A stretch of 63,936 nt of DNA, filler included, from Kipferlia bialata (lineage: Eukaryota): the NCBI GenBank assembly GCA_003568945.1. It is 5 parts of 5 records of this genome, joined end to end, with 100 filler letters (N's around TTAATTAATTAA, not from the genome) between each part and the next. Parts side by side here need not be neighbours in the genome. Positions count along the whole stretch, not along the records: positions 1 to 24,539 come from BDIP01000222.1; 4 more parts are not named here. One strand, given 5' to 3'. A program made the position numbers and the translations under genes. The notes under the pieces were generated by a model. It was not told the DNA's origin. It worked only from the letters and a program-made list of their open reading frames with translations, and made no database searches. Below are positions 12,001 through 42,812 of this stretch, in pieces. How positions within the stretch are numbered: the stretch's first letter is position 1; each line of letters starts with the position of its first letter.

Positions 12001-13546
12001 TACATCTCTCACTGGGGTGAGGGAGCAGGGCAGGAAGAGTGACAACTACCCCCACTGACTAACTGACCTAGAGTGCTGACAGTACGCATCAGTGAGGAGT
12101 GTGTGCCAGTTGACATCTGGGAGAGAGCGTCCTTTCTCTTTAGGGTCATAACCAGGGCTTCTGACTCGGCCTCACGCTCTCTCTTCGTGTCCCTCTCCCT
12201 TTCCTGAAGGGTCTCTGGCACACTCATACCCTCCCTGCTGGTCAGAGTGGGTGAGTGAGGTTGAGCAGGATAGAGTGTGTGAGTCGCATACCTGCTTGAG
12301 AACAGCCGGGAAGGGTGCGACACGGGGGCCTCCCCACACAACGGATCTCTAAGGGGGGACACACCATATACCGGCTCGTTACTACAGGTAGGGAGCAGGG
12401 AGAGAAGGGCGGCCTCCCCAGATGCTGCGGCAGCAGGGGGGGGACGCGACACCTTGGAGTGATCTCCAGCAACCAGATGGAAGCTCGTGAGGCGAGACAG
12501 AGTGGACGCGGCCGGGCCGGGGGTCCTCTCCTCATTGTCTCCGTCAGAGCCATCGCCATCACCCTCAGCCTCTCCCTCTCCCTCTCCCTCGGTCTCAGAG
12601 AGAGCCCCCCCTTCCATGTCTTCAAAGGCCTCAAAGGAGGCTGAGTGGGGAAAACGGTCCCCGAAGAGCATGCTACGCACTGATCTGATGTACGTGTTGC
12701 TGAGGTCACCTGGACAGTAAGGTAGAACACAGAGACAATACACACCTGTGTAATGACCACCAATTCCACACTGAAGCTTACCTCTCATTGTGAGGAACAG
12801 AGGCATGTGAGGGTAAGGGGCTGTGGGTGTGTTACTACGAGATCCCGGGCCAGCCGAATCCTTCATACGCTGCTGCATTCTAGAGTGAGGATAGGCGCCA
12901 GAAGGGGGGGGGGGGTACTGATAGCTCACCTGAATATGGGCCAGGGGGATGGAGACGACATCCAGGTGAAGGTGCGGTCTGTCAGCTGTAGCAGGATGTA
13001 CAGAAACTCCTTCCGGAGAGGGGCCAGCACAGAGAAGACCTTCCGGCCCCTGGAATTAGCTGCAAGTACAGGAACTAGAAACCAAAGCATAGGATAATAT
13101 GATACCTATTGGCGGCAGAGATACACCACAGGTTGGATATGTGGCAGATGCCGAGGAAATCATCGGTCAGCTCCACCTCGGGCCCCCTCAGGTACCAGTT
13201 GCAGACAGGTGACCTGGGGTGGGGGAGAGGGGTGGGAGCTAAGAAGATATCACTTGGCATCTGATACATAACAGACCAGCTCTCTCAGAAGACATGGGGT
13301 GTATAGGGCACATGTCATAGGGCATCTACCTCGTGATCACTGCAAGCACTGACACCACGGCAACAAAGTATCGGAAGCCTCGGCTGGCAGCTGAAGTTAG
13401 TGGGAGATATCACATACACAGGGCACGAAAGAGAGAAGCGAACTACCAAGGGTGGAGAGTGGGCACATACCAAGGATGGTCGGGTTATCCCCGTTGTGCA
13501 CACAGGACTGGGCAAGTTCAAAGGACTCCTGGTCATCAGAAGCCAT
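1..13546 (-). CDS. Very large multi-exon BEACH-family (neurobeachin/LRBA/NBEAL-like) protein, N-terminal and central part; continues beyond position 1
   Basis: First exons splice in frame from ATG 13546 (MASDDQESFEL...ITR|SPVCNWYL). ConA/LamG-like segment at ~6040-5450 (WRHLGVSI...ADVVVYVNGKQVASESAFYP) is followed by SIRELLTCVGGVQSLFPLLQQL (~4845-4780), resembling the NBEA/NBEAL 'IGGIQVLFPL' motif. The BEACH domain itself is not in the window, and not every junction was verified. Confidence 0.7.
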
Positions 13547-13739
13547 TGTCACAGAGAATCGGGGGAGGGGGGGGGGGGGGGGGGGAAAAACAAAAAAACA
13601 ACGCNNNNNNNNNNNNNNNNNNNNNNNNNNNNNNNNNNNNNNNNNNNNNNNNNNNNNNNNNNNNNNNNNNNNNNNNNNNNNNNNNNNNNNNNNNNNNNNN
13701 NNNNNNNNNNNNNNNNNNNNNNNNNNNNNNNNNGGTGTC

Positions 13740-13778
<39 letters not shown>

Positions 13779-13786
13779 GCTCCCAC

Positions 13787-14500
13787 CTGTGATGGCGCCT
13801 CTGATCTTGATGGCAAGGTCAGACTCAGTCCACCTGGGGGAGTTGTCGGCAAAGATACCAACCCTGGGGGTGAGAATATAAATAGAACACTTGGGATAGA
13901 AGACGAGTTGGAGCAATATGAAGCAAAGCCGCAAAACAGACGCACCTGTCGCCGATGGCCACGCCCACGTTGTCGAGGACCTTGGAGATCTCGTCGACCT
14001 CAATACCCATCTGGGTGTAGCTCCTCCACTGGTAGTCGGGGGCGAACTCGCCGTCCTCCTGCACGGGCCTCTCTCCCAGGGCCATGGCGTCGCCGTAGTT
14101 GTCGACGGCCATGCGGAACATGCTCCCGATGGTGGCATTCTTGTAGTCCCAGTCTGGGGTGAGGAAGCGTGGTGGGAAAATGGGTGTAGGTGGTCCCTAA
14201 TCAATGCAATCAAGGGTCATGGATGAGACGTCATCGCCCAGTTACCCGAAAATAGAATCACTACCAAAAGGTCGCCCTAAAAGCCAAAATCTCTTCGTAG
14301 TATAAGTGAGGGGTGATATCATAAGCGAAAAGACTCGAGGAAAGGTGAATGCGCGAAGAATACAGGAGGTAGATGCACATCGAAACTCGAGAACTAACAA
14401 AATCAGCAAACGTACTCTCTAGGACAGGGTGAGTAGCGTCAGCGAGCGCCTTCTCGGCATCGGTAGGCTGAGGGACCCTAATAAACGTAGTGTGGCTCAT
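13787..14500 (-). CDS. Long-chain acyl-CoA synthetase (AMP-binding), 5' three exons only; remainder lost at poly-G/N gap
   Basis: Exons 14500-14416, 14153-13946 and 13863-13787 join in frame to ...YQWRSYTQMGIEVDEISKVLDNVGVAIGDRVGIFADNSPRWTESDLAIKIRGAIT, a typical ACSL N-terminus. Confidence 0.8.
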
Positions 14501-14845
14501 TATTGCTGTGTCGTGCCTAAAGAAGCAGAACTATGAAACGAGCATCAGTCTGGCCGGGTTTGAATTATAACCAAAGTGAATTAAAGGTATAGGCCTTCAT
14601 ATATCGCAGTGTTCTCAAGGCGGTGATCTATAATGCTTGTGGGCAGATATCAAGTATCCTAGTTGTCTTCGAAGATATCATTCACCGTCGTGATGCTGAG
14701 GTGATGGCTCACTATGAATTCACTGAAACCCTCATTGTCAAATAGTCTCCCACTCTACTTGGCACATGTCACTGTCAATGTCACTACAGTCTAGTACGGC
14801 AGTCTATTATGGTACACCTACTAATTGACACGTATAATATGGACG

Positions 14846-15306
14846 CTATAGCATATCACATTCGTAAGCCTCTGGACACACAATATCCTCCTGGAACCGC
14901 AGCACCGATGTGTTGCACTTGCCAACCACCAGCACATCCTTGTGACTCAGGCGACAGCATGTGATGCGACCTGTATCGGTCCAGTTGGGGGAGGTGGTAG
15001 TCCACCACTTGCCCCACGGTGTGAGATTACCCTGAGAGTGAGGGGAACAATAATGATACGTATATATATATATATATATGTGCAACATAGTGTGAGTGGA
15101 TGTACCTCCAGCCTGTTGTACCCTGCCACGTCCCCAGTGTATCTGTTGACACTGACTATGTGTCTGCCCATGGGCATCAGGGTGGTGCCAGAGGGAGGGT
15201 TCATGCTGGGGCACGTGCTGCTTGTCTCCCACCCTGTCTCCAGACTGAACACATGGGACACCCTGCCATACTGCAGTATGTGGACACGGTCATCCATCAC
15301 TATCAT
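14846..15306 (-). CDS. 3' exons of a hypothetical protein (beta-propeller/Kelch-like composition)
   Basis: Two exons with GT-AG intron (…GYNRLE|GNLTPWGKWW…CDML*); out of phase with the upstream exons across the poly-G run. Confidence 0.5.
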
Positions 15307-15342
15307 CTGGGTCAGTATCAGGTGGGGGGGGGGGGGGGGGGG

Positions 15343-15379
<37 letters not shown>

Positions 15380-15439
15380 AGAGGGAGGGTAAAATAGGGA
15401 GAGCTGAATGGTTGTTTGACATGTGCTACTCTCTCGTAC

Positions 15440-15706
15440 CAAGTGCCTCGGTCTGTCCCTTCAGAGCAGTGTACCACCCGGCAGCAAGCTCTCTCCTCCT
15501 CTTCCAGAGGGCTGTGTCACCCTGGGTGTCAGAGAGAGGACATCACACTTTGTAATGGGTGACGAGTAAGCTTTTGTGCTTCAACTTACCCTCCTGGCGT
15601 CTGGTAGGTCCACAATGATGGCCAGACCCTTGTCCTGAGGGGTGGGGACAAACACACGCTGCACAAGCAGAGTCAGCTCCTCACTGGATAGGTGTGTGTC
15701 GGTCAT
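15440..15706 (-). CDS. 5' exons of a hypothetical protein (MTDTHLSSEELTLLVQRVFVPTPQDKGLAIIVDLPDARR|GDTALWKRRRELAAGW…)
   Basis: ATG 15706, exons 15706-15590 and 15521-15440 with canonical splice sites. Confidence 0.6.
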
Positions 15707-15931
15707 GGTTTTGATTTCAGAGGTGTAAAGGTCAGTGTCACTAAGCAGTCAAGTGAAAGCTCAACCCTTAGCGGATTTGTTTCTGCCTTACTCGCTTCCA
15801 AACACTGTCACACATCCTTTCTCAACTACAAGATCTATTCTTGCAGTCTGCAAGGTTAATATAGAAGCAGAGGGCGGGATATAGGAACATGAATAGTACA
15901 CATCTTAGTGAAGGGTGCCACTGAGGCAGGG

Positions 15932-18707
15932 TCAGTATCTGAGGGATGATATCACATCAGCCAGGGTGGAGTGGATGTATCCCACACTGCCCCTCTCGTT
16001 CCTCTCAGTCTCTACATCGAGAGAGTGCCTGACCCGTGCATCCTCCTGGTTCTCCTCACTCTCCATCTCTCTCTCCCTCTCTCTGGTCTCTTCGAACACC
16101 TTTACCTGATGTAAGAGGCAAATGGAAACACACAAACAATATCCTACACACACAGCAACTATGAAGTATCATATCACATAAGGCCACACACTGTCTCCCA
16201 CATAAATACCCACCTCCTGGATGACCTCCCTCAGCCTTCTGAGTGACACTGTCTCACTGGGCGTCAGCTCAGGGTGGACAGGGGTCTGGGACTCAGGCCT
16301 CTCCTCCAGTAGGATGGAGAGAGAGAGGGGCTGTCTGGCGGTGGGGGAGAGGGTCCCCACATAGTCCTGGCCAGACACACCAGACGCACTGACACTGACA
16401 CTGGACCCACAGTCATCCCTGGGCGACCCCCCTCTGCTCTCTCCCTGCCAGTCCGGTCTGGGTGCCTTGAGCAGCTGCTCTCGGATGTGGTGGGCCAGCA
16501 GGACATGCGACACCTCGGCCACTCCATCCGGTACAACCTCCAGGGCAGGGAGGGGGTCAGCGGTGTCTGTCCTACCAGTGGATGCCCCAGCTACCCCAGA
16601 CCCTGCCCTACCACCTGCATACCAGGGGTGCTGGGGGAAGGGGGAGACAGCAGCCCACAGAGACCCATCAAAGGAGGTAGCAAAGGAGGGGGCGGGGGCA
16701 CGTAGCCTCTCCTCCTGCAGAGCCAGGGAGACAGCTCTGAGGTTAGATGTATGTATATTCATGTATGTACAGACATAATAGGAGAAGTGTATGGATTAGC
16801 CCCACCTGACTGCGTTTGGGATACTGGTGCATATGAGGCACCCTGCCAGCATGCACCCCTCCACCGCAGAGTCATAGGCATGCAGGGCAGACACACAGTC
16901 GTCCAGGTGCAGCAGACGGAACCGCTGGCAGAGGGTCTCGATGCAGTGCCTAAGGCCTCTGAAGGTCTAGGAGTCAGATGCGGATCGAGAAAGGTACATA
17001 AGATGTGATATATGGGGTCGTAATACCACATCCTCGGTACACATACCTGTGCTAGCACCATCAGGTCACTGCGAAGGTGGGGGGTGCGAGTGCGGGAGGG
17101 GCTGATATTAGAGGGTAAACTGATAGAGTTAAGATAATACAGTATCCACAACTACCACATACCGGACCCCCTTTGCAATGCTCTTCCCCCATGCCTCAGC
17201 TGCCGCCACACTATAGCTGAGGAGGATGCTGATGGGAGCAGGGAAGGGCGTGGGGTACAGGGTGGGGGGTATGCGGCGTCGGTATGTCTGCACCCCAAGG
17301 GTGGACCCCCCCACCCTGACCCCAGACCCCCTCTCAGTAGTGTCCAGATAGTGCGCATGGGATAGAGCTGTGCACATCTGTATGACACCTCTCGCATGGT
17401 GCATGAAGGCTAGGGAGGAGCCTGTAGGGGGAACCGAGAGGGGAAGGGAGAGAGAGGGACACAGGCCAGGGGGGGTGGGCCGCTGGTGGAAGCTGTTCCA
17501 CTTCTCCTCCTCCCTGTGTGCCTGTATCAGCACCCTGGCCTCTCCCACCAGGGACACTGTGACTCTGCGCCACAGGGAGGGGTGGGGTGGGGCAGGGGAG
17601 ACCAGGAGTCGGTAGAGGAGGTGGGTGGGCCGCAGGGGGTAGAGAATGTCTGTCACGTATCTGCTGTGCTCCCTCTCATCCCCTCCCTCCCCTCCCTCAC
17701 TGAAGTCCCCGGTGAGTGAGGCCCCTGCATCATCCCAGGACTCAACATCATAGTAGTCGTGTCTGGGGTCAGATGAGAGAGAGAGAGAGGGGGGTATTGA
17801 GTGTCGATACATGCATACACCACCCATACCTATCCTCCAGGTGTATGTTCATCTGCAGGGACTGCAGAGGGAGCTTGGCCAGCCCCATCGCATGCATGGT
17901 CAATAGCATCGTGTAGGTATGCCTCTCGGGGGTGTCCATGTTACAGCAGCCAAACCTGGGTGAGGGAAGTTGGAGATAGATTACAAATATAGAACTCATA
18001 TATGCCACCATACACACACTCACCCGAACCCCCTCCCCCAGGACTGCCCCCTGGGTGCATCGACCTCATCAGGGAGGGTGCGCCACACAGACACAGCGGA
18101 CCTGGGTGAGGAAAGGGGGGGGGGGGGGGGGCTACACTGATGATATATATACATATATGTAAATATGTATCCAGTCACACCTGTTGACAGGGCAGAACAT
18201 GCTGTACACCAGTCTGCGGCATATGGGCCCTATCTGGTCGAAGAGAGGCTCCCACAGGGAGAGGAGGAGGGGTGCAGCCTCTGTGGCGACCCCTGCTGTG
18301 GGAGGGGGGCACTCCTCGGATGCAGGGTCGGACAGACGCTGCATGCACTCATGCAGGGAGGAGTGCACGCGGCGCAGATAGGAGACAAAGAGGGACAGGA
18401 AGGAGTGGGCCATCAGGGACGGGGGGGCCTGGGGGTAAGGGGGTGGTAGAGAGACATGAGTAGTAGTATATACTGATATACACACACCTCTGAGTCCCTG
18501 GCCAGGAGGGGGTGCTGTCTGCATAGCAGGAAGAGGGACTGCTCAAATGCCTCAATCCCTGTCTTTGTGCCCACCCCCCCTGTCAGGATGGACACGGTCT
18601 GTCTGTCCAGCACTATCCCATTCTGGACAAGGGGCATCACAGTCTCCACAACACCGGGGTCTAACTGCACCTCTCTATGCACAGGGTCCGGCACCAACAC
18701 TCCCTGC
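15932..18707 (-). CDS. Multi-exon hypothetical protein, 5' end lost in gap
   Basis: Series of GC-rich exons bounded by GT…CTCAC/CTGAC-N-AG introns; stop at 15932; no family recognised. Confidence 0.6.
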
Positions 18708-19755
18708 CTGGAGGGTAGAGGGGGGGGGGGGGAGAAGAGAGGGGGGGGGGGGGCATAATATACCAAATGTGCATGGNNNNNNNNNNNNNNNNNNNNNNNN
18801 NNNNNNNNNNNNNNNNNNNNNNNNNNNNNNNNNNNNNNNNNNNNNNNNNNNNNNNNNNNNNNNNNNNNNNNNNNNNNNNNNNNNNNNNNNNNNNNNNNNN
18901 NNNNNNNNNNNNNNNNNNNNNNNNNNNNNNNNNNNNNNNNNNNNNNNNNNNNNNNNNNNNNNNNNNNNNNNNNNNNNNNNNNNNNNNNNNNNNNNNNNNN
19001 NNNNNNNNNNNNNNNNNNNNNNNNNNNNNNNNNNNNNNNNNNNNNNNNNNNNNNNNNNNNNNNNNNNNNNNNNNNNNNNNNNNNNNNNNNNNNNNNNNNN
19101 NNNNNNNNNNNNNNNNNNNNNNNNNNNNNNNNNNNNNNNNNNNNNNNNNNNNNNNNNNNNNNNNNNNNNNNNNNNNNNNNNNNNNNNNNNNNNNNNNNNN
19201 NNNNNNNNNNNNNNNNNNNNNNNNNNNNNNNNNNNNNNNNNNNNNNNNNNNNNNNNNNNNNNNNNNNNNNNNNNNNNNNNNNNNNNNNNNNNNNNNNNNN
19301 NNNNNNNNNNNNNNNNNNNNNNNNNNNNNNNNNNNNNNNNNNNNNNNNNNNNNNNNNNNNNNNNNNNNNNNNNNNNNNNNNNNNNNNNNNNNNNNNNNNN
19401 NNNNNNNNNNNNNNNNNNNNNNNNNNNNNNNNNNNNNNNNNNNNNNNNNNNNNNNNNNNNNNNNNNNNNNNNNNNNNNNNNNNNNNNNNNNNNNNNNNNN
19501 NNNNNNNNNNNNNNNNNNNNNNNNNNNNNNNNNNNNNNNNNNNNNNNNNNNNNNNNNNNNNNNNNNNNNNNNNNNNNNNNNNNNNNNNNNNNNNNNNNNN
19601 NNNNNNNNNNNNNNNNNNNNNNNNNNNNNNNNNNNNNNNNNNNNNNNNNNNNNNNNNNNNNNNNNNNNNNNNNNNNNNNNNNNNNNNNNNNNNNNNNNNT
19701 TCCCCAGGGGTGGTGTTTTCCCCCCCCCCCCCCCCCCCCCCATTCTCTTCAGTCT

Positions 19756-19787: not shown

Positions 19788-19808
19788 ACCACCCCTCTCA
19801 CCTCCCAG

Positions 19809-22792
19809 CGGTCTCTTTGGCCCTGTGTGTCAGATACTGCTGAGTGTCAACCCTCAGATGTTTGTGGAGTGGTTCAGCCTGCACCCATTGCTCTGGATTG
19901 CAGTGAGGTGTATTGACCTTGTGTACCTCCATTTCTCTTCATCCCCACTCTTACTTCTAGTCAAGTGTGTATATATTGTTTGTGTCACCCTCACCTTTCC
20001 TGCTTTCTCTGTCTCTCCTCTGTCTCTCTGTCTCTCTCTCTCTCTGTCTTTCTCTCTCTATACCTATTTGCACCATCTCACTCCCAGCGTGGCTGTCTCC
20101 GTGGGCACCCTCACCTACTTCATAGTACTAGTGACAGTGGCAGAGTGGGCCACAAAGGCAACGTACGTATATACACACATAGTATTCTGCTACATATATA
20201 GATAGAGATTAAGGGGGAGAGAGAGAGAATAATGTCAGTCCTGGTCACAGTGGCAGAGTGGGCCACAAAGGCAACGTACGTATACACACATAGTATTCTG
20301 CTACATATATAGATAGAGATTAAGGGAGAGAGAGAGAGAGAAATGACAGTCCTGGTCACAGTGGCAGAGTGGGCCACAAAGGCAACGTGAGTATAGCATG
20401 TTTATATTGTGTATAGTTATAGATAGAGAGAGAGAGAGAAGTGGGCTACCAAGGCAACGTGAGTGTAGTGTATTCATATATATTGAGAGAGTGAGTGTGT
20501 GAGAGAGACTCTGTCTGTGTGTTTGTATGTACTCAGTGCACCTGACCCAGCTACCATGCTGTCTCCTGTCGCTATAGGATACAAGTGACTATTTCTATCA
20601 GTCTGAATATTTACTCATAATATATATGTACCAACTTCTCACCCCAGTTACCAGGCTGTATCGTGTAGGTTCAGATACCCCCAGAGGTTCCTGCTCTATG
20701 CTGGGGTGTACATATTCGTGGAGGTGCTCTATGGGTTCACAATGATGGGTGCGTGTTAGTAGTGTTAACTATACTATTATATATATGGGTGTGTTTACAT
20801 GGAATAGTAATAGTATCGTAAGTATTAATACATATCGTGTGTTCTGACCCCCAGGCACCAACTGCCAGACCGACTCTGACCACCTGTACATATGCCCTGT
20901 CCTAGTTCTAAACGGGTCCGGATTCAGGTATGGGGTATATTACATATATGTAAGGTATAGCATCCTGTTCCATCGTATGTATTATATATTTCCTTCGGAG
21001 TTCCTCTCACAACTTACATGCGTGCTTAGGAATGCGTCTCTCTCTCTCTCTCTCTCTTCCTCCCTCTACCCCCTAGGCGTGATGACCTGGATCAGATGGG
21101 TCTGCGACCATTCCTCAGGGAGGCCACATGCGATGGTATGGGTTGGGCCAATTAATATATATATATGTGTATATAACCAGGATATTTGTATGCATTGGCC
21201 ATTCCTCAGAGAAGCCACGTGTGATGGTATGTATTGTTCTGAAATAGATGCTAACACATCAAGTTCTTCCTCTGCGTATCTCTCCTCTCTTCGCTCCTCT
21301 CATCCCTCAGCCACCCACTGTGCCGAGATATCCCCAGTAGTGCGGTCAGACCTCAAGGTATTGCTATATGTCTGTACATACCTCTATATCTCTCTCTCCT
21401 TTTGTCTCTATATTGTTCCATACCTATGCATTTGTCCTTAGTACGGTCAGACCTCAAGGTAAGGACACACACACACATATATGTATATATACATATATAT
21501 ATACATATATATATATACCTCAAGGTACACTATGTCTGTCTCCCTCTCTTCATATGTATCTCTGTACCCCTCTAGTACGCTCAGACCTCAAGGTGCTATA
21601 TATGACTCTCTCTCTCTCTCTCAGTCTGTCTCTGAGGTTCCTGTATATATATATTCATCTCCACAGCCTCTAACCCCCAGGCCTTCTTCCTGATCCAGTT
21701 CCTTCTCTCTCTCTCTCTCTCTGTCTCTCTGTATCTCTCTCTCCGTCTCTGTCTCTCTCTCTAACCCCCAGGCCTTCTTCCTCATCCAGTTCATAGTGCA
21801 GCCCCTGAACTACCTCATCTACATGCGCTTCATCAGGTATATGTCTCTCTCTCTCTTCATCAGGTGCATGTGTCTATCTCTCTCTCTCTCCCATGTAGTG
21901 TGTGCGACGTGTAGGTACATACTCACCTTAGACTCTGAGCTCATAAACAACCAATGATGTTATGTGTATCCGTTTCTCTTGTATATCTGCTACATACACC
22001 TAACATCAGATACTACCCCGAGCTCATCAAGAACCTGCGGCGCCCTCTCTTTGACAAGAAGGACAAGAAGAAGGATGTGGACGAGAACTCTCCCCTAGGT
22101 AACCATATCATATAGATATATTCCCTGATGCCTCTTTGTCTCTATAATAGTCCTCTTTGTGTCAAGAAGGACAAGAAGAAAGATGTGGACGAGAACTCAC
22201 CTTTAGGTAGGGTGTATAACCTCAGCACGCTGAGTATTCTTACCCATATAACCAGTATACCAATACACCTCTTTGTCTATGTACCTATATAAAGTGTGTC
22301 TCCCTCCTCACCCCCAGTCGTTGTGGCCCCCAAGCAGGCAGAGTATACTCATCCTTGTCCATATATACAATACTGCTATATACCTGTATATCTCTCTCTC
22401 CATCCTCACCTCAGTCGTTGTGGCCCCCAAGCAGGCCGAGTTCGCAGGGCTGGTGGCAGTCAACTTCTGGTGGGTGTTATGGCATCTCTCTCTCTCTCTT
22501 TACCTGATTCCATATAAGTATAATGTAAGTATAGTGTTCACATTGATTGCATTTATGTATATATACCCCAGTTCGCAGGGCTGGTGGCAGTCAACTTCTG
22601 GTGGGTGACGTGTACTCTCTCCCCCTCTCTATATATAAGTTATGTATTGTGTATACTATTTATATTCCCTGACCCCAGGTACTTCTTCCTGTCCAGCGTG
22701 GCCTACCTATGGTGCAACACACTCAATGTGAGTATAGTATAGTATAGTATAGTAATTCTATATTCTAGTATTGTATACATGAGTCATGATGT

Positions 22793-22824
<32 letters not shown>

Positions 22825-23496
22825 TACACCCTTTAACCACAGTTCACTGTCATTGATGACCCTGATGAGTCTGTCATGATGTTCTGTGTCATTGTGATGG
22901 TCACATACCACGTCACACTGCTGGATAACCTGATAGGGATAGAAGGTGAGGAAATATATACACCCACCTTAGTGTATATATATGATTGTCACATATACTA
23001 GTCTGTATCAATGTATTAAGTCAATGCATATAGTCTCCCTCTCCCCCCAGGTGGCACCATGGATGCCCTGAGGGCTAGTAGGGGATATGAATTATATACT
23101 ACTATATATATGATTGTCACATATACTCTTGAGTCTCTCCTCTTATACAAGGTGGCACCATGGATGCCCTGAGGGCTAGTGGGGGATATGTGTTATGTAC
23201 TATATATATATATATATATTTATATATACATATGATATGTGATTGTTCCCTATACTCTATATCCTCCTTCTCACACCAGGTGGTACCATGGATGCCCTGA
23301 GTGCCAGGCCCTCCAACCAGATACTGTCAGACGACATCCCATATAGGTATGTGGATACGTATATATGTATTGACAGATACTGTCAGACGACATACCGTAC
23401 AGGTGGGGGATGGGTATTCGTCTACGCATCCACATGTGTGTATTAATTTCAATTTGGACTAACCCCTAGGTGGAAGGACACCTCTGCCAAGCACTG

Positions 23497-23531
<35 letters not shown>

Positions 23532-24494
23532 ATATATATATATGGCCTCACTCCCAGGTGGAAGGACACCTCAGCCAAGCATGAGCTATTGAGGGTACCC
23601 ATTGAGATGGCACTGCTGCTCACAGGGCCCGTGGTGTTCTTTGGTACCTGTACTCTCTCTTTCTCTCTCTTACAGCTATTCGACTCCACATACATATGGA
23701 TTTCCCTTCCAATACCTATTATTACTGACCCCAGTATGCAACCTAGACTCGATCTCTGCTGAGGACGTGTGTCCATCCCTGGCCCTACTGGTGGCAGAGC
23801 AGTTCTCTATACTGGGGTGAGAGCATATGTGTAGAGATATCATTAATGGGAGTGTACAGTGACACTCTTTGGACCCCATGTCTCTCTCAGTCTATTTCCC
23901 CTCAACCTAACCTATCATGGACTGGACTGTTTCTCTCTCCCCCCCCCCCCACCCTCTCTCTTCTCATCCCAGTCCATCTCTTAGTCTCGAGCGCCTTATG
24001 CTTCTCTCTCTCCCTCCCCCTCCCCCCGTCTTACTCTAGCATGTCCTTTGACCTCGAGTGCCTCATGCTCCTGGGTGCCCTGTGTCTAGTACTGTTTACA
24101 GTGTTCATACTGCTCATGAGGGGACATGTCGCTGTTACCACAATCAAGAAGAGGTTCAGGTATATATAAAGCTTATGTATAGTGTAGAGTAGACCATATA
24201 TATACTCCTCCTGAGGGAACACGTGGCTGTCACAACAATCAAAAAGAGGTTCAGGTGAGTGTATGTGGTGTCCCTCTAGTATCTATCTTCATACCAATAT
24301 TTATGTATACATGTCTCCATACATTGATATGTATTATGTATACAGGTCTCTCTAACTATCTTACCAGTTACCAGTGGTGATACCCCCATGACCCTCTAGT
24401 ATATATACCTCTATATATATTTGCACATAGCTCTCTTGCTCTCTCTCTATACCTGTCTCTCTCCCCCTCACCCCCAGTGGCGACACCCCCATGA

Positions 24495-24500
<6 letters not shown>
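19809..24500 (+). CDS. Multi-exon multipass membrane protein, partial at both ends
   Basis: Exons with hydrophobic helices (VAVSVGTLTYFIVLVTVAEW; FLLYAGVYIFVEVLYGFTMM; AFFLIQFIVQPLNYLIYMRF; LMLLGALCLVLFTVFILLM); the junctions checked are in phase. Confidence 0.7.
20131..20462 (+). repeat. Tandem exon-end/donor repeats (4 copies, period ~112 nt for the first three)
   Basis: GTGGCAGAGTGGGCCACAAAGGCAAC|GT ending at 20162, 20275, 20386, with a shorter variant ending at 20458. Confidence 0.95.
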
Positions 24501-24538
<38 letters not shown>

Positions 24539-24583
24539 TNNNNNNNNNNNNNNNNNNNNNNNNNNNNNNNNNNNNNNNNNNNN

Positions 24584-24595
24584 TTAATTAATTAA
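24584..24595. other. Artificial scaffold linker TTAATTAATTAA flanked by N runs
   Basis: Six-frame stop linker embedded in N runs; identical at four places. Confidence 0.95.
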
Positions 24596-24647
24596 NNNNN
24601 NNNNNNNNNNNNNNNNNNNNNNNNNNNNNNNNNNNNNNNTATAAAAA

Positions 24648-24687
<40 letters not shown>

Positions 24688-24731
24688 AGAGGTAGAAAGA
24701 AAGAGAGAGAGGGGAAGAGAGAGAGTGCTAC

Positions 24732-25324
24732 CTGCCATCTTGGCACCAAAGACACCAGTCTGTACGGCCTCCCCGTTGTACTCCTCCCTGAATGCAGTGA
24801 CACACCTGTCGAAGAAGGGCTCAGCCTAGAGGATAAGGAGTTAGAGAGAGAGAGAGAGAAGGGGGGGGGGGGGGGGGGGTAGCAAGAGTGAGAGACCCAT
24901 ACCTCCTTGGGGTTGAGTGCATTGTGGAAGTCGGGTCTGTTCCCCTTGAGCTGTCCGTACAGAGTGAACTGGGGCACCAGCAGCACACCATACCCGGCAT
25001 CCTTGACACTCTTCTTCCAGGGCCTGTATCAGTATCAGTATCTGTATCAGAATATATATATGTATCGGTATATACCTGCCCTGCTCGTCTGGGAACAGCT
25101 TCACATTCAGCACCTTCCTCACGATGTAGGTCATGTCGGCACGCATGTCATCCCAGTTGATGCCAAGGAGCACCATGTATCCCTAGGGTGAGAGAGAGAG
25201 AGAGAGATGGGGTATAGATGCACTACCCTGTACCCACCTGCTCAATGGCCCCAGAGACATATGGAGTCTCTACGTCCTCAATCGTCACAGAGGCCTCCCT
25301 GACACGCTGGATAATGACCTTCAT
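24732..25324 (-). CDS. DTD1: D-aminoacyl-tRNA deacylase, last exon missing
   Basis: MKVIIQRVREASVT…GYMVLLGI…KVLNVKLFPDEQGRPWKKSVKD…LLVPQFTLYG…KGNRPDFHNA…VQTGVFGAKM. Confidence 0.93.
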
Positions 25325-25470
25325 AGATGGTACGTGACTATGAAATAGTGTTCAGAGAGTATACTTATGGAAAAGACCTCTGGGGCCTACACCCTCAGTG
25401 TGCCAAGACAAAAAGAGCTGAATTGATTTCCGCCCATGCCACTCAGTTACATTATACTCTCTACCCACAG

Positions 25471-26404
25471 ATGTTCAGCGGTAGTGGAGGTGTTGCACAC
25501 ATAGAGACAGCCAGGCCAGACCTGCCCAATGCAGGCGTGGCCCAGGCCCTGATTCCCCCATTCAACCAGGTATATAGTGCGTTGAGTGTAGGATTATTAT
25601 TAATACTATATTGCCTTCTATTCACTGATTGATATGCTGTGTGGTGCTCTGATTCCACACTTCATGCATGCATATCTGCTATTTGGATGAGTATAGTACT
25701 TCAGCACATATATGCTGCATGGCATGTGCATGAGAGGTCCCTAGTCTGGGAGTGTATACACTATGGTAGGTACCCCCCCCCCCCCACTTTCTTCACTCAC
25801 TCCAGTTCCTTCGTGTCCCCTACAAGGTCCTGGCCATTGAGACCCCCTCCGAGTTCACCTATGCCTCTGGGTCTGGGTCCACAGTGCGTGCATGGAACTG
25901 GCGCAATGGAAAGAGCAGACGCGCCTTCAAGGGACACACTGGTACGATGCTATGGGAGAGGCACTCTGTACTATATTATATCTATACTCGGAAAAGGATG
26001 TTGGTTTCAATATGACTTTGATTTGCCCAGTAGTGTGGCAGAAGGAATTGATTCTGTTACCGGTACCGGTACCGGTACCAAATCCGCTTCACTCTCCTTG
26101 TCTTTTTCATTTCTTCTCCTCTTACCCCAGGACCCGTGACCAGCATTGCCCTGGACTACCCTGCTGGCCTCCTCTACACAGGTAGGAGTGGAGTGTATGT
26201 GTATATATATATGAGAGTATATAGATACTGATACCCCCGCCCTGGACTACCCTGCTGGCCTCCTATACCCTGGTATACGCCCCCTCTATAGTGTACCTTC
26301 TATTGTTGTCAGTATATAGATTACTGATACCAGGCAGCTGGGACCAGCGCATTGGTCACTGATATACCCTCTCAGTATCCATAGTGTCACCATACCTTAT
26401 ATTA

Positions 26405-26440
<36 letters not shown>

Positions 26441-28349
26441 CTGATCCTTAGGCAGCTGGGACCAGCGCATTGGGGTGTGGGACCTCAAGACTGGGGACAA
26501 TGTCAAGTACGTGGCAGAGCACCTCGACTTTGTAAAGGTAGGGCTGGACTCTCTTTCTCTCTCTCTCTGTCCGACTAGCATGGAAGAGAGCATTATGTTT
26601 TCGTCTATCGAGTATAACCCTCTCTATATAGTTGTATTCTTTTATGGACTGCCCCTTGCTCTCATTCCCCCAACCATTTCCCCTCTACCCCCCTGGCATG
26701 TTTCTCTCTTTTCCCGTTTCCCTCTCTTTTCCTCTGTCTCTCTTTCCCACTTACCCTCTCCCTCTCACCCCAGGCCCTTGCTGTGTTCCCTGAGCACAAG
26801 CGCCTGGTGTCTGGAGATGCCAAGGGAGTCATGAAGGTATCATCTGTTGTATTGTAAATATTCCTTATATTGTGTCACATGCACTCTGGTGATGCCAAGG
26901 GAGTGATGAAGGTACTATCATTATTACAGTAGTTGATAATGTGTATATATCTTTATACTACTTGTTGCGTTATATACCCTCTGGTGATGCCAAGGGAGTC
27001 ATGAAGGTACTGCTATTCTCATGTATTTTGTGTATATACTACAGTTGTATTAATGGTGTGAGTCAGTCTCATAAGTGTGTATGGTAAAGAATATCCCCTC
27101 ACTGCTAGGTGTGGGACACTGAGACCATGACTGGTGCAGACCATCAATATATTTGTGTATATCAGTGTTATTATTGTATTTAGTATAGGCTATCCCCTCA
27201 TATATAGGTGTGGGACACTGAGACCATGACTGTGGTGCAGACCATCTACCACCACAGCAGGAGTGTGGACTCTATCATCAGACTGGGGTCATCCGACCTG
27301 TTCTGCTCGGCATCCAGTGACAGGTATATATATACACACATATATATATGTATTTGCACTGATGTGTAGATGAGTAGTGACACTGACACCAGGGCTGTGT
27401 GTGTGTGGAGGCTGGGTGCCGAGGCCCCCGAGGTCTCCCTCCCTGTCTCTGACGACATTGCTAAGAACATGGCAGGTGGGACACATACATTTATAGTACA
27501 CTCTTGCACTAACTCTATACATTTCACGCTTCATCTGTACTTACCCTTCAGGCCACCTTACGGGTGTCCTCGACCTTGTCTATGACGAGGGGACTGGTCT
27601 CCTCTACACTGCATGTGCAGACAGGTTCGTCCGTTGCTGGCGGCTCCCCCAGACGAGTGATGGCCAGGCTGTCATGCAGTGGGTGTCACCACACACACTC
27701 AACACTGGGGTGACAGCTCAGGTAGGCGGACGCTGATACATATGATATACCTATGTTTGTTTATGTATATACTGACGTAACCAGGTTGGCACCAAGTATG
27801 AGGAGGCTGATACCTGTACTGATACGTGCACTGATACCTATGCATATATATATATACTTGTATATGTATATATACTGACATAACCAGGTTGGCACCAAGT
27901 ATGAGGAGGCAGCCCACGACCGCATCCTCCCTGTCCTCTCTGACTGGCCCCTCTCCATCGCTCTCTCTGCCGACAGGGCCCACATGGTGTGTGGCCTGAG
28001 GGACGGGCGTGTGACAGTGCTCGACAACAGTGACGGGTCTGTGGTGGGCAGTGTGAAGCCCCACAAGGACGGCATTGCATCCATAGAGTGTGTGTCCATG
28101 CTGGACTCCGGTGACAAGGACGTGCCCCAGTCGGAGCAGACACCAGTCGAGTGTGTAGTGACCGGCTCCTGGGACTTCTCTCTCAGGAGGCGGAGGCTGG
28201 GTGACCTCCTGGCTGAGATTAAGGGTGTAGACAGGGAGGAGGGGGAGGGAGAGGGCGAGGACTCCTTCGAGGACACGGATGATATGCTGGATGACCCCGA
28301 GGTGGCCGAGATGCAGAGGGAGAGGCTCAGGGCCATGCTCGGAATGTAG
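25471..28349 (+). CDS. WD40-repeat protein
   Basis: Spliced repeats: AFKGHT|GPVTSIALD…LLYT|GSWDQRIGVWDL; RLVSGDAKGVMK|VWD; FCSASSDR|AVCVW; VVTGSWDFSLRR; acidic C-terminal tail. Start codon tentative. Confidence 0.88.
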
Positions 28350-28583
28350 ACGGTGTAGATACTACAATGTAACACTACCAAACCCAAATAGAACATGATT
28401 ATTATACGGTGACGCGTACATGAGTCGTTGAAATCACCATTGAGCAGAGCCTGGGAGATCAATGTGACATTGATCAGTGTTGAAGGGTTCGACGTTTTTG
28501 CTTGATTCTGACTGGTAAGAACAGGCATTTTGTAGTCTCTCTCCACCTGACGGAAATCATCTCTCTCCACCTGACGCTGTGCC

Positions 28584-30739
28584 ATGTCCCAGGGAGAGAG
28601 TGCCAGTGAGGAGTCGTCCTCCTTCGATGACGAGGACTTCTCGGACATGCCGGGTCTGGAGCAGGTGGACGTGCAGGCACAGAGGCAGGAGATGGCGGCA
28701 GGTATTCATATGATGCATACCCGTATTACTATATATATATATATATATATATATATGTTCAAGCACAGAGGCAGGAGATGGCAGCAGGTAGGCTTGTATA
28801 CCCCACTATGTAGTCATACTCTTATTTCTTTTGTGTATACATAGGTACAGGCACAGAGGCAGGAGATGGCGGCAGGTACACTGTGTATGTAATGTATATA
28901 GGTATATCCAGGCTTGTATATACAGGGGGGTGCAGGCACAGAGGCAGGAGATGGCAGCAGGTAGAGTGCACTATATCCATGTGTGGTAGAGTATACCCAG
29001 TATATATATATAGCGGCGTGCAGGGCAGAGGCAGGAGATGGCAGCAGGTACCCGGCATACTAACATACACACATATGATGCACTCTAAATGCATGGTTTA
29101 GCATGATCTTACCCCCAGAGCTAGCCATTGACTTCCGTGACCTCCCCATGGGCACCCTGGAGGATGGTGCTGAGCCTGACTATGCCCATGCCGCTGAGCT
29201 CAAGAGTAGGGCACTGGAGGAGGCCAGGGAGGGACACCTTAGGTATGAGCAGTGTATATATACTATCATATAGTGTACTCTCTATCAAGAGTAGGGCACT
29301 GGAGGAGGCCAGGGAGGGACATCTGAAGTATATCGTAGTATATACTATATAGTACACACTCTCTCTATCAAGAGTAGGGCACTGGAGGAGGCCAGGGAGG
29401 GGCACCTCAGGTAGGGCGGTGTAATGGTATCATATATATTCTCTCTATCAAGAGTAGGGCACCTCAGGTAGGGCGGTGTAATGGTTTCATATGTATTCTC
29501 TCCGCATCACTGGTGTCTCACCTACCGGTATCTATTCACCTCAGGAAGGCCGTCCTCCTTGCCTCCGATTATCTAGTATAGTATATTACAGTAGTATATT
29601 CTACATTCATAATCAATTCACCTTAGGAAGGCTGTCCTCCTTGCCTCCGATGCAGTCCAGGCCCACCCTGGGAGTGGGCTGATGCTGGTGTGCAGGGCAC
29701 GCATCCTCATCGACCTGGGGGAGATATCAGCCGCAAAGAGGGACCTCAAGGTATCCCAGACACACACTCTCTCTCTCTCCCCCTCCCTCTACACAATCCT
29801 TTACTTATCTCTCTCACTCCAGCTGGCTGTTAAGCGCTCTCCCAACAGTGCCAGTGCATACCACTGCCTAGGTACATCAGTGCTAGTATATATATATATA
29901 TATATATATGAACTGCCATAGGTTCACTGATGAATAATGTATCAATACGCCGATACTTACAGTGTCTGTCTAACTCTTCAGGTGACGCCTGCAGTCTGTA
30001 TATGTGACAATGTTATTATATATGAGAAATTGTGCTCTCTATTGTATTCGATCCATCTACTTATGGTAGTACTTATCCCTAAGGCGACGCCTGCCGTCTG
30101 CTGTGTGACAGTGAGGCAGCAGTATCATAGTATATAGTGCATATTTGATTATTGATGGTACATTGATATACACCATATCTTTCTCTCATCTTCAGGCGAT
30201 GCCTGCCGTCTGCTGTGTGACAGTGAGGGTGCTGTCAAGGCATACCGCACTGGGCTTGACCTGGAGTACAGGGCAGAGAGTGCTAGACACCTCACGGTCA
30301 TGGAGAAGGATGTTAAGGTATAGGGATATACCACCCATAGCATATGTATATATATATACCACTATGATAGTATCTGTTTATATATATATATATATATATA
30401 TCACTGTGGTAGTATCTGACTGTCATGGAGAAGGACGTCAAGGTATAGGGATATACCTCCCATAGCATATGTATATATATATACAGCTATGCATATTTAT
30501 GTATAGCTGTTGTTTTCCCTGTAATGGTACTGATGTCCTGGGCTAGGAGCAGGCCAGTCAGTATTCTCTCTCTCTCTCTATATATCATTATACACTGATG
30601 CCCTAGGAGCAGGCCAGACGGGACAGGGCAGTCAGTGTCATATATTGTACACACTACTATTTGCATACTTCTATATATATATATATCAGTTGATACTGAT
30701 GCTTTAGGAGCAGACAAGACGGGACAGGGCAGTCAGTAT

Positions 30740-30778
<39 letters not shown>

Positions 30779-30941
30779 CAGTTGACCCTTATCCCTAGGA
30801 GCAGGCCAGACGTGACAGGGCAGTCCGGGAGAAGGTCAAGGTCGACATCAAGCCTGGGAAGCCGTCATCTGCCATACCTGGGGTGCACCCAGCCGCACAG
30901 GGGTTCAAGCCTCCTGCTGGCATGGCCAACCGTACGTTAGA

Positions 30942-30983
<42 letters not shown>

Positions 30984-31286
30984 TTCCCTCTATATATATG
31001 CTATCTTACCCCAGCCTTTGAGGTGCTTGCTGACGAGGCTGCCAACCTCTCGCCCCAGATGGCTGAGAGGCTCATGGGGGACAACAAGGTGGCATCCCTC
31101 TTCAACGACCCAGACTTTGCGGCAAAGGTATGTTCATAGTATTCATTACCCGGCTTAAGGTGTGATATCTACCCCCAGCTTGCCGAGGCCTCCAATGGTC
31201 CAGAGGGTGCTGCCAAGTTTGCCAATGACCCCGAGTTTTTGAAGAACATTGCGGCATTCATGGGTGTCATGGGGCAAAAGAAGTGA
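28584..31286 (+). CDS. Hsc70-interacting protein (HIP/ST13)-like TPR plus STI1/DP co-chaperone
   Basis: TPR helices (KAVLLASDAVQAHPGSGLMLVCRARILIDLG…RSPNSASAYHCLGDACRLL) and C-terminal DP motifs (LFNDPDFAAK…KFANDPEF); stop 31284-31286. Confidence 0.78.
28671..29050 (+). repeat. Five regularly spaced exon-end/donor repeats with dissimilar spacers
   Basis: CAGAGGCAGGAGATGGC(A/G)GCAG|GTA with GT at 28702, 28788, 28876, 28961, 29048. Confidence 0.95.
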
Positions 31287-31287
31287 G

Positions 31288-31335
<48 letters not shown>

Positions 31336-31682
31336 ACGCGCGAGGCATTCGTGGGACGCTTTGAGCTGCCGCGACCAACCTGTATCCTTAATAGTGTAGT
31401 GTTTACGAGCGGACGCGATGGCCGGGAGTATCATTCATTCCCTCCACTTGGCACTGAGGTGATATTATCAGCAGATATGTGTGTAAGGCCGAAGACGCCA
31501 GGGGCCGGGATTCATGGAATTGAAGGATGGATGCACAACTCTCTAGTACTACGAAGCAGTCTCTGGAATAGACAACGACGCGACCACCTTCACCGAATGA
31601 ATATCAATAATCTATTGTTACCACCACTCGTCTCGTATAAATGCTATCTCTCCTATCTCCGTGTATCACTGGTAGTCTGTAT

Positions 31683-32333
31683 CTACTCGGTGATGCCCCT
31701 CTGTGCCAGGAACTCAGTCTCCTCGTTCTCAGTCATCTCAGCGGCAAGCCTCAGCCACCTGGGGGTGAGGGGGGGGGGGGGGGGGGGGGGGGAGGGGGGG
31801 GGGGGGGGGGGGGGGGTAAAGGGGGAGATAATGGTAACGATATTGACTATTTAGCCAGTAAAGAAGTGTCACTGCAGTACAAAAGGAGCACGCATACAGT
31901 ATTGGAATGATGGGACACATATTCATATGGACTAATCTGATCGATTGACCATCAGCATGTGTACCTTGCACACTTTCCCGAAGCACCCTGAACCCAGTAG
32001 GGCTTCCAGAGTGTACAGCTCAGTGAGCGAGTGCTCCCTGGGGGTGAGGAGAGAGATAGAGAGAGAGAGACGAAGGAGGAAGGAAAGCGAGTAACATCAG
32101 AATGTATGACACATTAACTTCTATATGCTACAATTTCACACTCGGACACATACATTTGCGTCATGATGACAGGAATAAGGCAAATGAACTGTGTGAGAGC
32201 CCTTAGAGGGGTTGAAGAGATTGAGTATACATGTTATGTATATGCTTGATTACAGGTTGATACAGATAGAGGGGAACACTTACTTTTGCTCTGCAGGCTG
32301 TGAGGACTTAGTCAGAAAGCTGTGATCGGCCAT
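31683..32333 (-). CDS. Ser/Thr protein kinase; N-terminal exons plus probable last exon, middle missing at poly-G run
   Basis: MADHSF…EQK|EHSLTELYTLEALLGSGCFGKVCK (Gly-rich loop); the terminal exon WLRLAAEMTE…* is out of frame with it and resembles the post-HPWL kinase tail. Confidence 0.7.
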
Positions 32334-32659
32334 CGCTGATAGTATGTGCTATTGCGGTTAGTAGTATGGAGCCTAGAGAGAGAGCTCTACTTGTCAGAGG
32401 GGACCAGTCCTCGAGACGACTTTTTGTCTGAGAGCAAAAGGGTGTAGGGTGACTAGTCCTGAGGTCCTCAGGCTGAGGACTAAGTCCTCTTGTACCGCAC
32501 AAGGTCAAAAGTTAATATCTATTGTACACATCCACTATATGGACAACTAATCACTCCACTACCTCTCTTGAAATATGTCAGAGCACCAGGGCTTCAAAGC
32601 ATTGAGATAGAAGTGAATAGAATAGTACTGTTCCATAAGTACTTAATAGCCTAATAGTC

Positions 32660-32967
32660 TTCAGGCAACACCCATCCCTTCAAAGATGTCAGGGGTGAGC
32701 ACCGCCCCAGCCTCACTCAGCATCTCGAGGTCGAGGGTCATATCACACCAGTCCTTCCCGTCATGTGCGTCAGGGCTGGGATGTAAGAATCAGTCGGTAA
32801 TCTACCATGACGCATAACAATACCATATATTCGAGTGTCATATCACACCAGTCCTTCCCGTCATGTGCGTCAGGGCTAGAATCAGATGTAAGAATCAGCC
32901 ATGATATACTAACAACATGACGCATAACTCCAAAGCAATGATAGTTAACTATTATCCAAGCTTCTGA

Positions 32968-33022
<55 letters not shown>

Positions 33023-36000: not shown

Positions 36001-36348
36001 GTGAGTGCAGGTACCTGAGAGGTGAGTGGGAGTATAGGGCAGAGAGAAAGAGGGGCATTAGGCCGGAGACAAGACATATAGTATGTGGAGTCGTGAAAGA
36101 GAGTACACGAAGACGTGGGAAAGATGTCAAGTGGGAAAGGGGAAGGGGAGATCAGGCTATCTGACGTACATGAATCCCTTGGTGGACCCCCCAAAGTCAG
36201 AGAGGGATACTCTCTCTCTCTCTATATATATATATCAAATAGGTTGTAAATAAATATATATATATATATATGTATTCACTCTCTGACGTACATGAATCCC
36301 CTTGTGGACCCCCCAAAGTCAGAGAGGGAGAGGGTGCGGGGCATGGTC
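32660..36348 (-). CDS. Multi-exon hypothetical protein (beta-propeller/Kelch-like C-terminal part), 5' end in gap
   Basis: Exons such as GVWEFDTK|TEQWTRLPEAPP, LGIGCIDAET|ERFLHLAD…ALCES|PDAHDGKDWCDMTLD…GMGVA*. Confidence 0.6.
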
Positions 36349-36657
36349 TGAAGATCAGGTGTAACAATATATGAAATATATATATGTAATAATATGTAAT
36401 GACAGCTGTAATAGAGAGTGGGGGGGGGGGGGGGGATGCCATATATATATATATATATTTACTNNNNNNNNNNNNNNNNNNNNNNNNNNNNNNNNNNNNN
36501 NNNNNNNNNNNNNNNNNNNNNNNNNNNNNNNNNNNNNNNNNNNNNNNNNNNNNNNNNNNNNNNNNNNNNNNNNNNNNNNNNNNNNNNNNNNNAGGTGGGG
36601 GGCGGGGGGGGGGGGGGGGGGGGGGGGGGGGGTGAGAGAGAGACTCAGGGCTGGTAC

Positions 36658-41284: not shown

Positions 41285-41495
41285 ACTGAGGATGTGGATT
41301 CAGTAAATTCACTCCAGTGTGAGAGAGAGTGCGTGTGTATAGACAATCACTGGGAGATAGCTAGGCAGTATATATAGTATGTACATAATATACACATACA
41401 TACTCACATGATTGAGTTCCTCAGCTTCATCATCTCATGTAGTATCCCACATACCATATGCATACATATACATATATATATACTGGTATACTCAC

Positions 41496-42462
41496 ATGAT
41501 TGAGTTCCTCAGCTTCATCATCTCGTGGGGGGTCAGGGCACCCCGGGTGTACTTGGAGGGGTGCCTACAGTGAGATAGGTATCTATATATATATATATAG
41601 GTATATATATAGGGAGGGAGAAAATGGGTGAGAGAGAGAGAATGGGGAGACCCCGGGTGTACTTGGAGGGATGCCAAAAGTAAGACAAATGTGTTACTAT
41701 ATATATAAGGGGGAGAGACAGAGATATAATGGAGGGTCAGAACACTAACAATATATATATATGTCTGGTGATGTACCTTGGCAGCCACAGCAGAATGTCC
41801 CATAGATATACAAGTATATGTTCAACATATGTAAATATAACCACATAGACTATTAGAGAGACATTCATATTCATCATACCTTGGCAGCCACAGCAGTATG
41901 TCTCCTGGTATATATACACATACATATGAAGCATATCAATACATATACATGTATATACATACGATAGAGGTGTATAGATATTCATACCTTGGCAGCCACA
42001 GCAGCATGTCGCTTGTTATACCAAATACAAAAGGTACTATATAAGGTACTCTATAGACATACTATAATAATATATCGACATATACATATATATACATATA
42101 TGTATGTACCTTGGCAGCCACAGCAGCATGTCTCCTCTGCGCCGCACATTGGTCTGGGGGTGAGAAGATGACAGAATATATAGTGTATATAGTATATATA
42201 TATATATAAGATAACACAGTATATAGAGTATACATAGTGTCTCCTCTGCGCCTCACATTGGTCTGGGGGTGAGATACTCATGGGAAGATAACGGTGAGAT
42301 AGTATGAAATAATGGGAATAGATGGGAAGCCGGTGCAGGGGGAGGGGAGGGAGGGTAATACAAAACTCATATACACACATATATTCCCACCTGGTGGAAT
42401 GTCCTGATGGATGGGAATGCCGTCCTCAGCTCATTCACAACCTGCTTGTAGTCCTTGCCGTT
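41496..42462 (-). CDS. Internal exons of a hypothetical protein, possibly Myb/SANT-like
   Basis: NGKDYKQVVNELRTAFPSIRTFHQ|TNVRRRGDMLLWLPR|HPSKYTRGALTPHEMMKLRNSI; only loose resemblance to a Myb repeat start. Confidence 0.45.
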
Positions 42463-42705: not shown

Positions 42706-42744
<39 letters not shown>

Positions 42745-42812
42745 TCATGGACACTGGAACCTACTAATACATTTGTATATGTGCTAGTACACTGCATGGA
42801 TAGTGTCCGTAC

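Follow-up and report, generated by a model that had tools for sequence, protein, structure and literature searches.

Copies of exon ends that lie in introns, and that nevertheless look as if they had been selected as protein, present a paradox, and the question of how such copies arise is raised by a membrane-protein gene of the free-living flagellate Kipferlia bialata. The DNA analysed here (63,936 nucleotides, referred to as the window) consists of several scaffolds of this intron-rich eukaryote with spacers between them. An exon translation of the membrane-protein gene is 100% identical to KIPB_001534, and a second gene in the window matches KIPB_001538 (WD40 gene). A preliminary description of the 3' half of KIPB_001534 (22053-24254) reported a run of such copies, here called echoes, which differ from their exons mainly by silent changes, and proposed that conservation declines with distance from the splice site.

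Gene models and the extent of the echoes

KIPB_001534 (19809-24491, + strand) was modelled with 16 exons as one open frame through the exon chain, both ends of the gene being cut by assembly gaps. Its summed exon lengths equal the offsets of the pieces in records 9 and 12, spliced contigs of run X2, and the match of its translation to protein record P0001 was judged by eye. Six genes in all were modelled by hand, giving 56 introns, all of them GT-AG and with open frames. Three of the other models fit 14 of the 15 joints listed, out of 17 in all, and two of the six were built from reading frame and splice signals only, without RNA support. The models do not include a gene at 37.4-40.9 kb, a minus-strand gene at 24.7-25.3 kb, two kinase-like pieces and the exons upstream of 43773, and the echo-rich sequence studied amounts to only about 23 kb. 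Searches against Pfam returned no family for 13 ORFs and none for P0001.

Each exon was aligned to each intron without anchoring, which gave 66 matches; 62 were kept (score of at least 30, no more than 6 nt from the junction) and four were dropped as scoring under 30 or lying off the junction. These 62 echoes are copies of the adjacent exon end and occur in 32 of the 56 introns, on 43 junction sides, with up to four on a side. Exon-intron matches scoring at least 32 were found in 43 of 112 adjacent pairs, compared with none of 560 non-adjacent pairs within a gene and 5 of 2800 in which exon and intron came from different genes. The splice dinucleotide is kept in 58 of the 62, with GT following 36 of 38 donor echoes and AG preceding 22 of 24 acceptor echoes. 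Echoes are 20-59 nt long and their junction-to-junction period is 56-134 nt (median 101). The unit size of about 100 nt may be set by the mechanism, or it may result from a filter, with longer units gaining a second splice site and shorter ones escaping detection. Intron length increases by 93 nt per echo (r = 0.89), so that echoes account for most of the variation in intron length.

In KIPB_001534 all echoes lie on the + strand. Three donor-side echoes of exon 20088-20162 occupy 20237-20458, the first two being recent, near-identical units; an old acceptor-side echo of exon 20648-20748 (20551-20578; 4 silent and 2 replacement codons of 9) was not counted, and four more echoes lie at 21197-21226, 21439-21458, 21567-21592 and 21681-21701. 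Eight scored echoes lie in the interval 22053-24254, and together they differ from their exons by 20 silent and 7 replacement changes. Here the used exon 22010-22098, which ends in KKDVDENSPL (record 9 spans 22004-22096 with no other letters), is followed by a donor-side echo at 22152-22206 with GT after it. Exon 22415-22469 (104 nt between record-9 pieces, that is, 55+49) has an echo of its own first half on one side (22318-22344, acceptor-side, AG before it) and of its second half on the other (22567-22600, donor-side). Exon 23280-23346, ending in QILSDDIPY (67 nt between record-9 pieces), is preceded by two acceptor-side echoes at 23051-23078 and 23152-23179, which share three identical differences, and is followed by a donor-side echo at 23374-23402. 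The WKDTSAKH echo (23470-23493) is an acceptor-side copy from exon 23558-23643 (record 9, 23556-23643, no other letters). Exon 24040-24159, ending in HVAVTTIKKRF (record 12, 24039-24159, no other letters), has a donor-side echo at 24202-24254 and an old, decayed acceptor-side echo at 23973-24005 that falls under the score cut and was not counted. An acceptor-side echo (24371-24394) of the exon starting at 24478, found as the pair 24371-24394 and 24474-24497, stands outside the statistics.

A further 28 scored echoes belong to three genes at 26239-36207 (the WD40 gene KIPB_001538, a second + strand gene and one - strand gene), and 19 to two more at 41408-47504, whose models are those drawn from reading frame and splice signals. 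Among start and stop codons, one of four stops and neither of two starts has an echo. The stop-codon echo (47707-47751, + strand) follows the stop codon and repeats the final 15 codons, with three silent codon differences, TGA/TAG among them, and no replacement.

Where an intron holds both types, donor echoes come before acceptor echoes (11 of 11 introns). Distal echo ends adjoin dinucleotide repeats (P = 7e-4 against spacer background), and echoes are found only in (TA)n-rich regions; there an echo lies upstream of 15 of the 58 strong acceptor-like sites, whereas none of the 90 such sites at 1-19.7 kb and 48-64 kb has one. Echo-rich introns are crowded with microsatellites. Sibling echoes of one junction often have a common distal boundary, with spacers that cannot be aligned, and in the first intron of the 28584 gene one silent variant appears and vanishes along the array. 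Age showed only a slight trend toward older echoes deeper in the intron (0.066 compared with 0.089, 14 arrays). Several echoes are frameshifted and one contains a stop.

The first donor and last acceptor are used in the spliced contigs at all 7 joints listed over echo-bearing introns, and likewise in the KIPB_001534 exon chain. Each joint links the outer donor and the outer acceptor of a single enlarged intron, and stepwise removal would be invisible in contigs. Echoes are thus absent from the dominant spliced contigs, with the reservation that contigs lose rare forms and that run X2, which shows spliced joints, is RNA by guess. Of 38 echo donors, 16 have a score no lower than that of the used donor. 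Recursive splicing at AG|GT was rejected as a general rule.

Silent differences and the proposed gradient

The codon differences given in the preliminary description agree with the alignments. The KKDVDENSPL echo (exon 22044-22098 against 22152-22206) shows AAG/AAA, TCT/TCA, CCC/CCT and CTA/TTA codon by codon, together with one further silent codon and two replacements (F to C and D to V) at distances of 45 and 48 nt from the donor, for a total of 5 silent and 2 replacement differences. In the QILSDDIPY echo there are three silent differences and no replacement (exon 23318-23346 against 23374-23402), and the WKDTSAKH echo has TCA/TCT and CAT/CAC (exon at 23558 against 23470). Five silent differences and no replacement were also found across the 11 codons of HVAVTTIKKRF; that echo reaches back to 24202, which brings in a sixth silent change as well as replacements located 37 and 44 nt from the donor (6 silent and 2 replacement).

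The silent excess is strongly supported and extends well beyond the interval in which it was first noticed, with a pN/pS of 0.16-0.17 for the 62 echoes of the six genes. With all echoes pooled, pS is 0.24 and pN 0.04 (ratio 0.16), differences at codon positions 1, 2 and 3 number 22, 26 and 103, and the ratio is 0.17 when siblings are collapsed. Fourfold sites differ at 71 of 295 and zero-fold sites at 48 of 1161, a ratio of 0.17 (bootstrap 95% CI 0.10-0.27, 43 junction sides); by gene, it is 0.05-0.06 in three genes and 0.30-0.33 in the other three. When echoes dead from birth were simulated with the same detection, the ratio was 0.52 +/- 0.09 and none of 100 runs reached the observed value. 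Sibling echoes compared with one another differ by 25 silent and 16 replacement changes, where 77% replacement is expected (P = 3e-7). Because siblings differ from each other mostly silently, the excess is not merely drift of the exon.

The proposed gradient fared differently. In 22053-24254, none of 7 replacements compared with 9 of 20 silent differences lie within 15 nt of the junction. Over all genes, the gradient is unsupported (P = 0.08-0.45). A distal rise is already produced by a flat model that keeps the real intron flanks, and the observed values fall within its range. Flat simulation that includes alignment-end bias gave P = 0.28-0.45 for the relative position of replacements and P = 0.08-0.13 for far-minus-near pN. 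Pooled pN is 0.046 at 1-5 nt from the junction, 0.021 at 6-15, 0.026-0.039 at 16-25 and 0.055-0.079 beyond. KIPB_001534 alone is borderline (P about 0.03-0.05, 8 replacements, one of six genes), and of its 8 replacements two represent one change common to sibling echoes and another two are probably located beyond the breakpoint. Loss of the gradient after alignment-end correction had been set beforehand as the ground for giving it up, and the gradient was largely lost. The old echo at 23973, with replacements next to the junction, is a counter-case. Nor does the splice site serve as anchor; because the echo at 47707-47751 lies behind a stop codon and needs no splice site, the anchor is the boundary between coding and non-coding sequence rather than the splice site as such.

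Intron flanks of exon and echo score as expected for 40% substitution plus indels, well below the scores for 8% or 24% divergence; they are nonetheless above unrelated introns (P = 2e-6), with only 5 of 62 exceeding the 99th percentile of these. The flank divergence figure is possibly inflated by microsatellite slippage. Since flanks are about 40% diverged, ten times the 4% at zero-fold sites, both copies were coding during most of their divergence, and one copy, selected as protein for most of that divergence, is now intronic.

Per-echo pS and pN are uncorrelated (rho 0.06), where 0.30-0.44 is expected were both tracking age (P = 0.002-0.02), and silent changes are balanced in their G+C direction (38 and 37). 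Conservative replacements were considered as a sign of allelic origin and rejected, replacements being no more conservative than random (P = 0.31). The independence of pS and pN, the balanced G+C and the random-looking replacements indicate that silent differences were present at birth and that replacements came after. A two-phase calculation places 72-92% of the silent divergence before the duplication.

Origin of the echoes

What is observed, then, is a series of tandem units of about 100 nt across a coding boundary, skipped in spliced contigs, biased toward silent differences and with strongly diverged flanks. The silent bias, the flank divergence and the independence of pS and pN suggest that the two copies came from different haplotypes, and two versions of an exon end that had each been selected as protein would most simply derive from two alleles. 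Judging from sequence comparison, we lean slightly toward echoes being old exon ends left behind by out-of-register break repair between two diverged alleles. A break in or near an exon would be repaired from the homologous allele, which would pair in the exon only, because the introns differ. Copying would continue into the intron of the donor allele, and the strand would be rejoined to the other broken end, often at a dinucleotide repeat, so that the donor allele's exon end turns coding and that of the recipient comes to lie within the intron. Survival would be limited to events that have one end in coding and the other in non-coding sequence, because the protein then stays intact. Units would afterwards be multiplied by unequal exchange. 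About 70-90% of the silent divergence (about 0.2-0.3 per site) would be older than the duplication, and replacements would represent later decay. Such a repair route would nest old ends inward and hence place donor echoes before acceptor echoes, the order found in all 11 introns with both. The spliceosome would bear the load by choosing the outer sites, those closest across the exon.

Candidate enzymes are Spo11 for breaks, Dmc1 for invasion and polymerase theta for joining; all are present in the species, with hypothetical roles. In the part of PMC8516963 Supplementary Data 2 that was available, K. bialata has entries for Spo11, Dmc1 and PolQ and none for Ku70, for which no metamonad has an entry, and mismatched joints are stabilised by Dmc1 according to the accessible text of PMC6719624. 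This repertoire makes the repair route feasible without proving it. K. bialata is reported to be diploid by k-mers (PMC5874029, as far as its accessible text goes). No second allele was seen as other letters in DNA run X1 over 19790-24495 at 90% likeness, and only one member sequence was found for both proteins searched. The silent divergence between alleles that an allelic origin implies, 0.2-0.3, is very high and weighs against it. A paralog as donor was rejected; KIPB_009340 is 61% identical and differs where echoes agree with the host exon.

Shared distal boundaries among siblings call for a second process beside independent breaks, and the same siblings, with their unalignable spacers, also fit old one-chromatid duplications whose spacers aged while echo or exon was overwritten by short gene conversion from the used exons of other alleles. 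The silent variant that comes and goes along an array and the recent, near-identical units are likewise in keeping with conversion, and old same-allele duplication refreshed in this manner predicts much the same data and fits nearly as well. Conversion between exon and echo on one haplotype only would give a derived ratio of 0.5-1, and so this explanation also needs diverged alleles; its tracts must moreover include the junction, given that GT or AG persists at 58 of 62 echoes and that the intron bases next to it resemble each other more than those of unrelated introns do. We regard it as unlikely, while giving it real weight. That echoes are selected in place, as alternative exon ends or small exons of minor transcripts, appears improbable. 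The silent bias would follow, the 16 of 38 echo donors as good as the used one are suggestive, and the loss of rare variants from contigs leaves room for minor use. Against this, an in-register GT/AG pair able to swap echo for exon end exists for only 9 of 62 echoes, mostly weak; splice sites are not enriched at distal ends (5% compared with 5% for acceptors, 8% compared with 17% for donors); the outer sites are used at 7 of the 7 joints listed; several echoes are frameshifted and one has a stop; and the stop-codon echo, without a splice site, is out of reach of such a swap. Three cases hinted that echoes are former complete small exons, which splice-site scores ruled out.

Were the echoes same-allele tandem duplications, dead at birth, whose silent look came from detection bias and silent drift of the exon, a ratio near 0.5 would be expected in place of 0.16-0.17, and flanks within about 8% in place of about 40%. 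The replacements do resemble neutral decay and microsatellites do abound in echo-rich introns, but within the window such an origin is refuted unless echoes mutate at about a third of the rate of the surrounding DNA, and we consider it very improbable. A draft short-read assembly, a report of diploidy and an allele-like silent bias might point to two haplotypes stitched in tandem. However, exon and echo are crossed by unbranched X1 contigs of 294-764 nt at even depth with no other letters, and X1 contigs 21771-22468, 23237-23490 and 23939-24467 each cover exon and echo, again with no other letters, although X1 may be the sample behind the window and these contigs are therefore not independent evidence; a contig of run X2 (22130-22352) runs through two echoes; and up to four different echoes stand at one junction. 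Judged by short-read contigs, such an artefact is exceedingly improbable.

Returning to out-of-register repair between alleles, it seems an even question whether recurrent swapping-in of diverged exon ends lengthens introns, so that those of the hot regions form a layered archive of past alleles.

Related systems and biological meaning

Duplicated or mutually exclusive exons are tandem exon-like copies with low dN/dS; echoes differ from them in having only one splice site and in being absent from spliced contigs. Homing-endonuclease cassettes bring in a diverged spare gene end that takes the place of the resident one, leaving it behind as a fossil, whereas echoes are junction-specific and have no element or endonuclease gene alongside. 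Unlike introners or transposon-derived introns, echoes match the adjacent exon only and form no one dispersed family. Where introns are gained by tandem duplication, the duplicated segment carries AGGT. Such gain from an AGGT-containing segment (Hellsten 2011, PMC3265369) resembles the echoes, so far as the available part of that source describes it, in that duplicated coding sequence turns intronic and an exon copy lies beside a splice site. Echoes, in contrast, copy an existing junction and enlarge an existing intron, with no new intron in spliced contigs. AG|GT is not required; exons end in AG at 16 of 23 donor-echo junctions compared with 26 of 33 without an echo, and start with GT at 6 of 20 acceptor-echo junctions compared with 6 of 36 without.

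Human F7 intron 7 contains a minisatellite, a tandem repeat with 5' pseudo-sites over the exon-intron boundary (PMC1557585). In the accessible portion of that report the repeat spans the boundary, donor copies trail the real one and the most upstream donor is used, features that recur here. There, however, a single locus carries near-identical 37-bp units, whereas in echo-rich genes the majority of introns contain echoes, on both donor and acceptor sides, with gene-specific units, diverged spacers and silent-biased exon parts. In mouse, offset SPO11 breaks lead to tandem duplications through out-of-register joins of two chromatids, and the same study also yielded inter-homolog joins and cases of aborted gap repair that included haplotype switches (bioRxiv 10.1101/2020.06.23.168138, from its available text). 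Those duplications are rare, come from ATM-deficient animals and span hundreds to thousands of bases, while echoes are fixed, serial and about 100 nt; the K. bialata lineage is reportedly without Ku-dependent joining, and a haplotype switch, observed in mouse, is for echoes inferred.

The K. bialata genome paper makes no mention of duplication in the main text available and contains nothing relevant in three supplements, and the accessible part of the spliceosome paper names K. bialata only for 87 retained proteins. In the literature searched, which most subscription journals lay beyond, no description of the echo pattern was found; the pattern is real and strong, and apparently undescribed. 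Echoes can mislead gene prediction. They are also relevant to the question, left partly open in the available text of PMC5874029, of whether K. bialata owes its intron richness to its ancestors. If the allelic reading is true, it would represent a new route of intron growth and imply exon-centred choice of splice sites in a short-intron protist with a reduced spliceosome. It would also provide a natural test set of competing splice sites, dozens here and, by extrapolation, likely thousands genome-wide. The recombination and extreme past diversity of a fornicate would then be readable from a single genome, which would record hidden recombination between haplotypes with a silent-site divergence of about 25%.

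Regional distribution of echoes

Echoes, that is, unused copies of the adjacent exon end lying in an intron or beyond a coding boundary, are divided abruptly by region, with positions 19700-48163 being echo-rich and positions 1-19699 and 48264-63936 echo-free. The echo-rich parts carry 12-20 (TA)4 matches per kb at 43-49% G+C, whereas the echo-free parts carry at most 1.5 such matches per kb and have short introns. Echoes are also few in the TA-poor gene at 37.4-40.9 kb. A weak, possible old echo lies at 60853-60994, on a scaffold that is otherwise echo-free.

Forms of echo and gene ends

At 22318-22600 a single used exon (22415-22469, + strand) stands between copies of its own 5' half (22318-22344) and 3' half (22567-22600). 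The break point is nearly identical in the two flanking echoes, as though an intact exon copy had landed inside a broken copy. An echo of the last 15 codons, its stop codon swapped synonymously, occupies 47707-47751 in the 3' flank of a gene that, by its motifs, is putatively prenyl-synthase-like. Immediately 5' of the start codon at 28584 is a short, non-coding direct repeat (28540-28577). Mini-echoes with short spacing, at 21514-21525 and 21859-21870, consist of just 7-8 exon bases plus GT; because copies of this length fall under the detection limit of the echo scan, the real number of echoes exceeds the count.

In the public model of the membrane-protein gene KIPB_001534, the last two residues are encoded past the exon, in the intron from 24160 (positions 24160-24500). 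Since the paralog KIPB_009340 runs on, with sequence like the KIPB_001534 exon at 24478, this sequence comparison indicates that the end of the model is probably wrong and that the scaffold end truncates the gene.

Splice-site choice

Low-depth contigs of X2, a run taken to be RNA only by guess, traverse echo-bearing and echo-free introns alike at 22130-22352 and 23614-23763, and represent either retained introns or DNA within the run. K. bialata is reported to retain 87 of 174 spliceosomal proteins. Throughout 19790-36400, every splice joint observed in spliced contigs for echo-bearing introns uses the outer sites (first donor and last acceptor), although echo donors, the GT following a copy, equal the used donor in score in 16 of 38 cases, which suggests that sites are chosen across the exon or that mis-spliced RNA decays.
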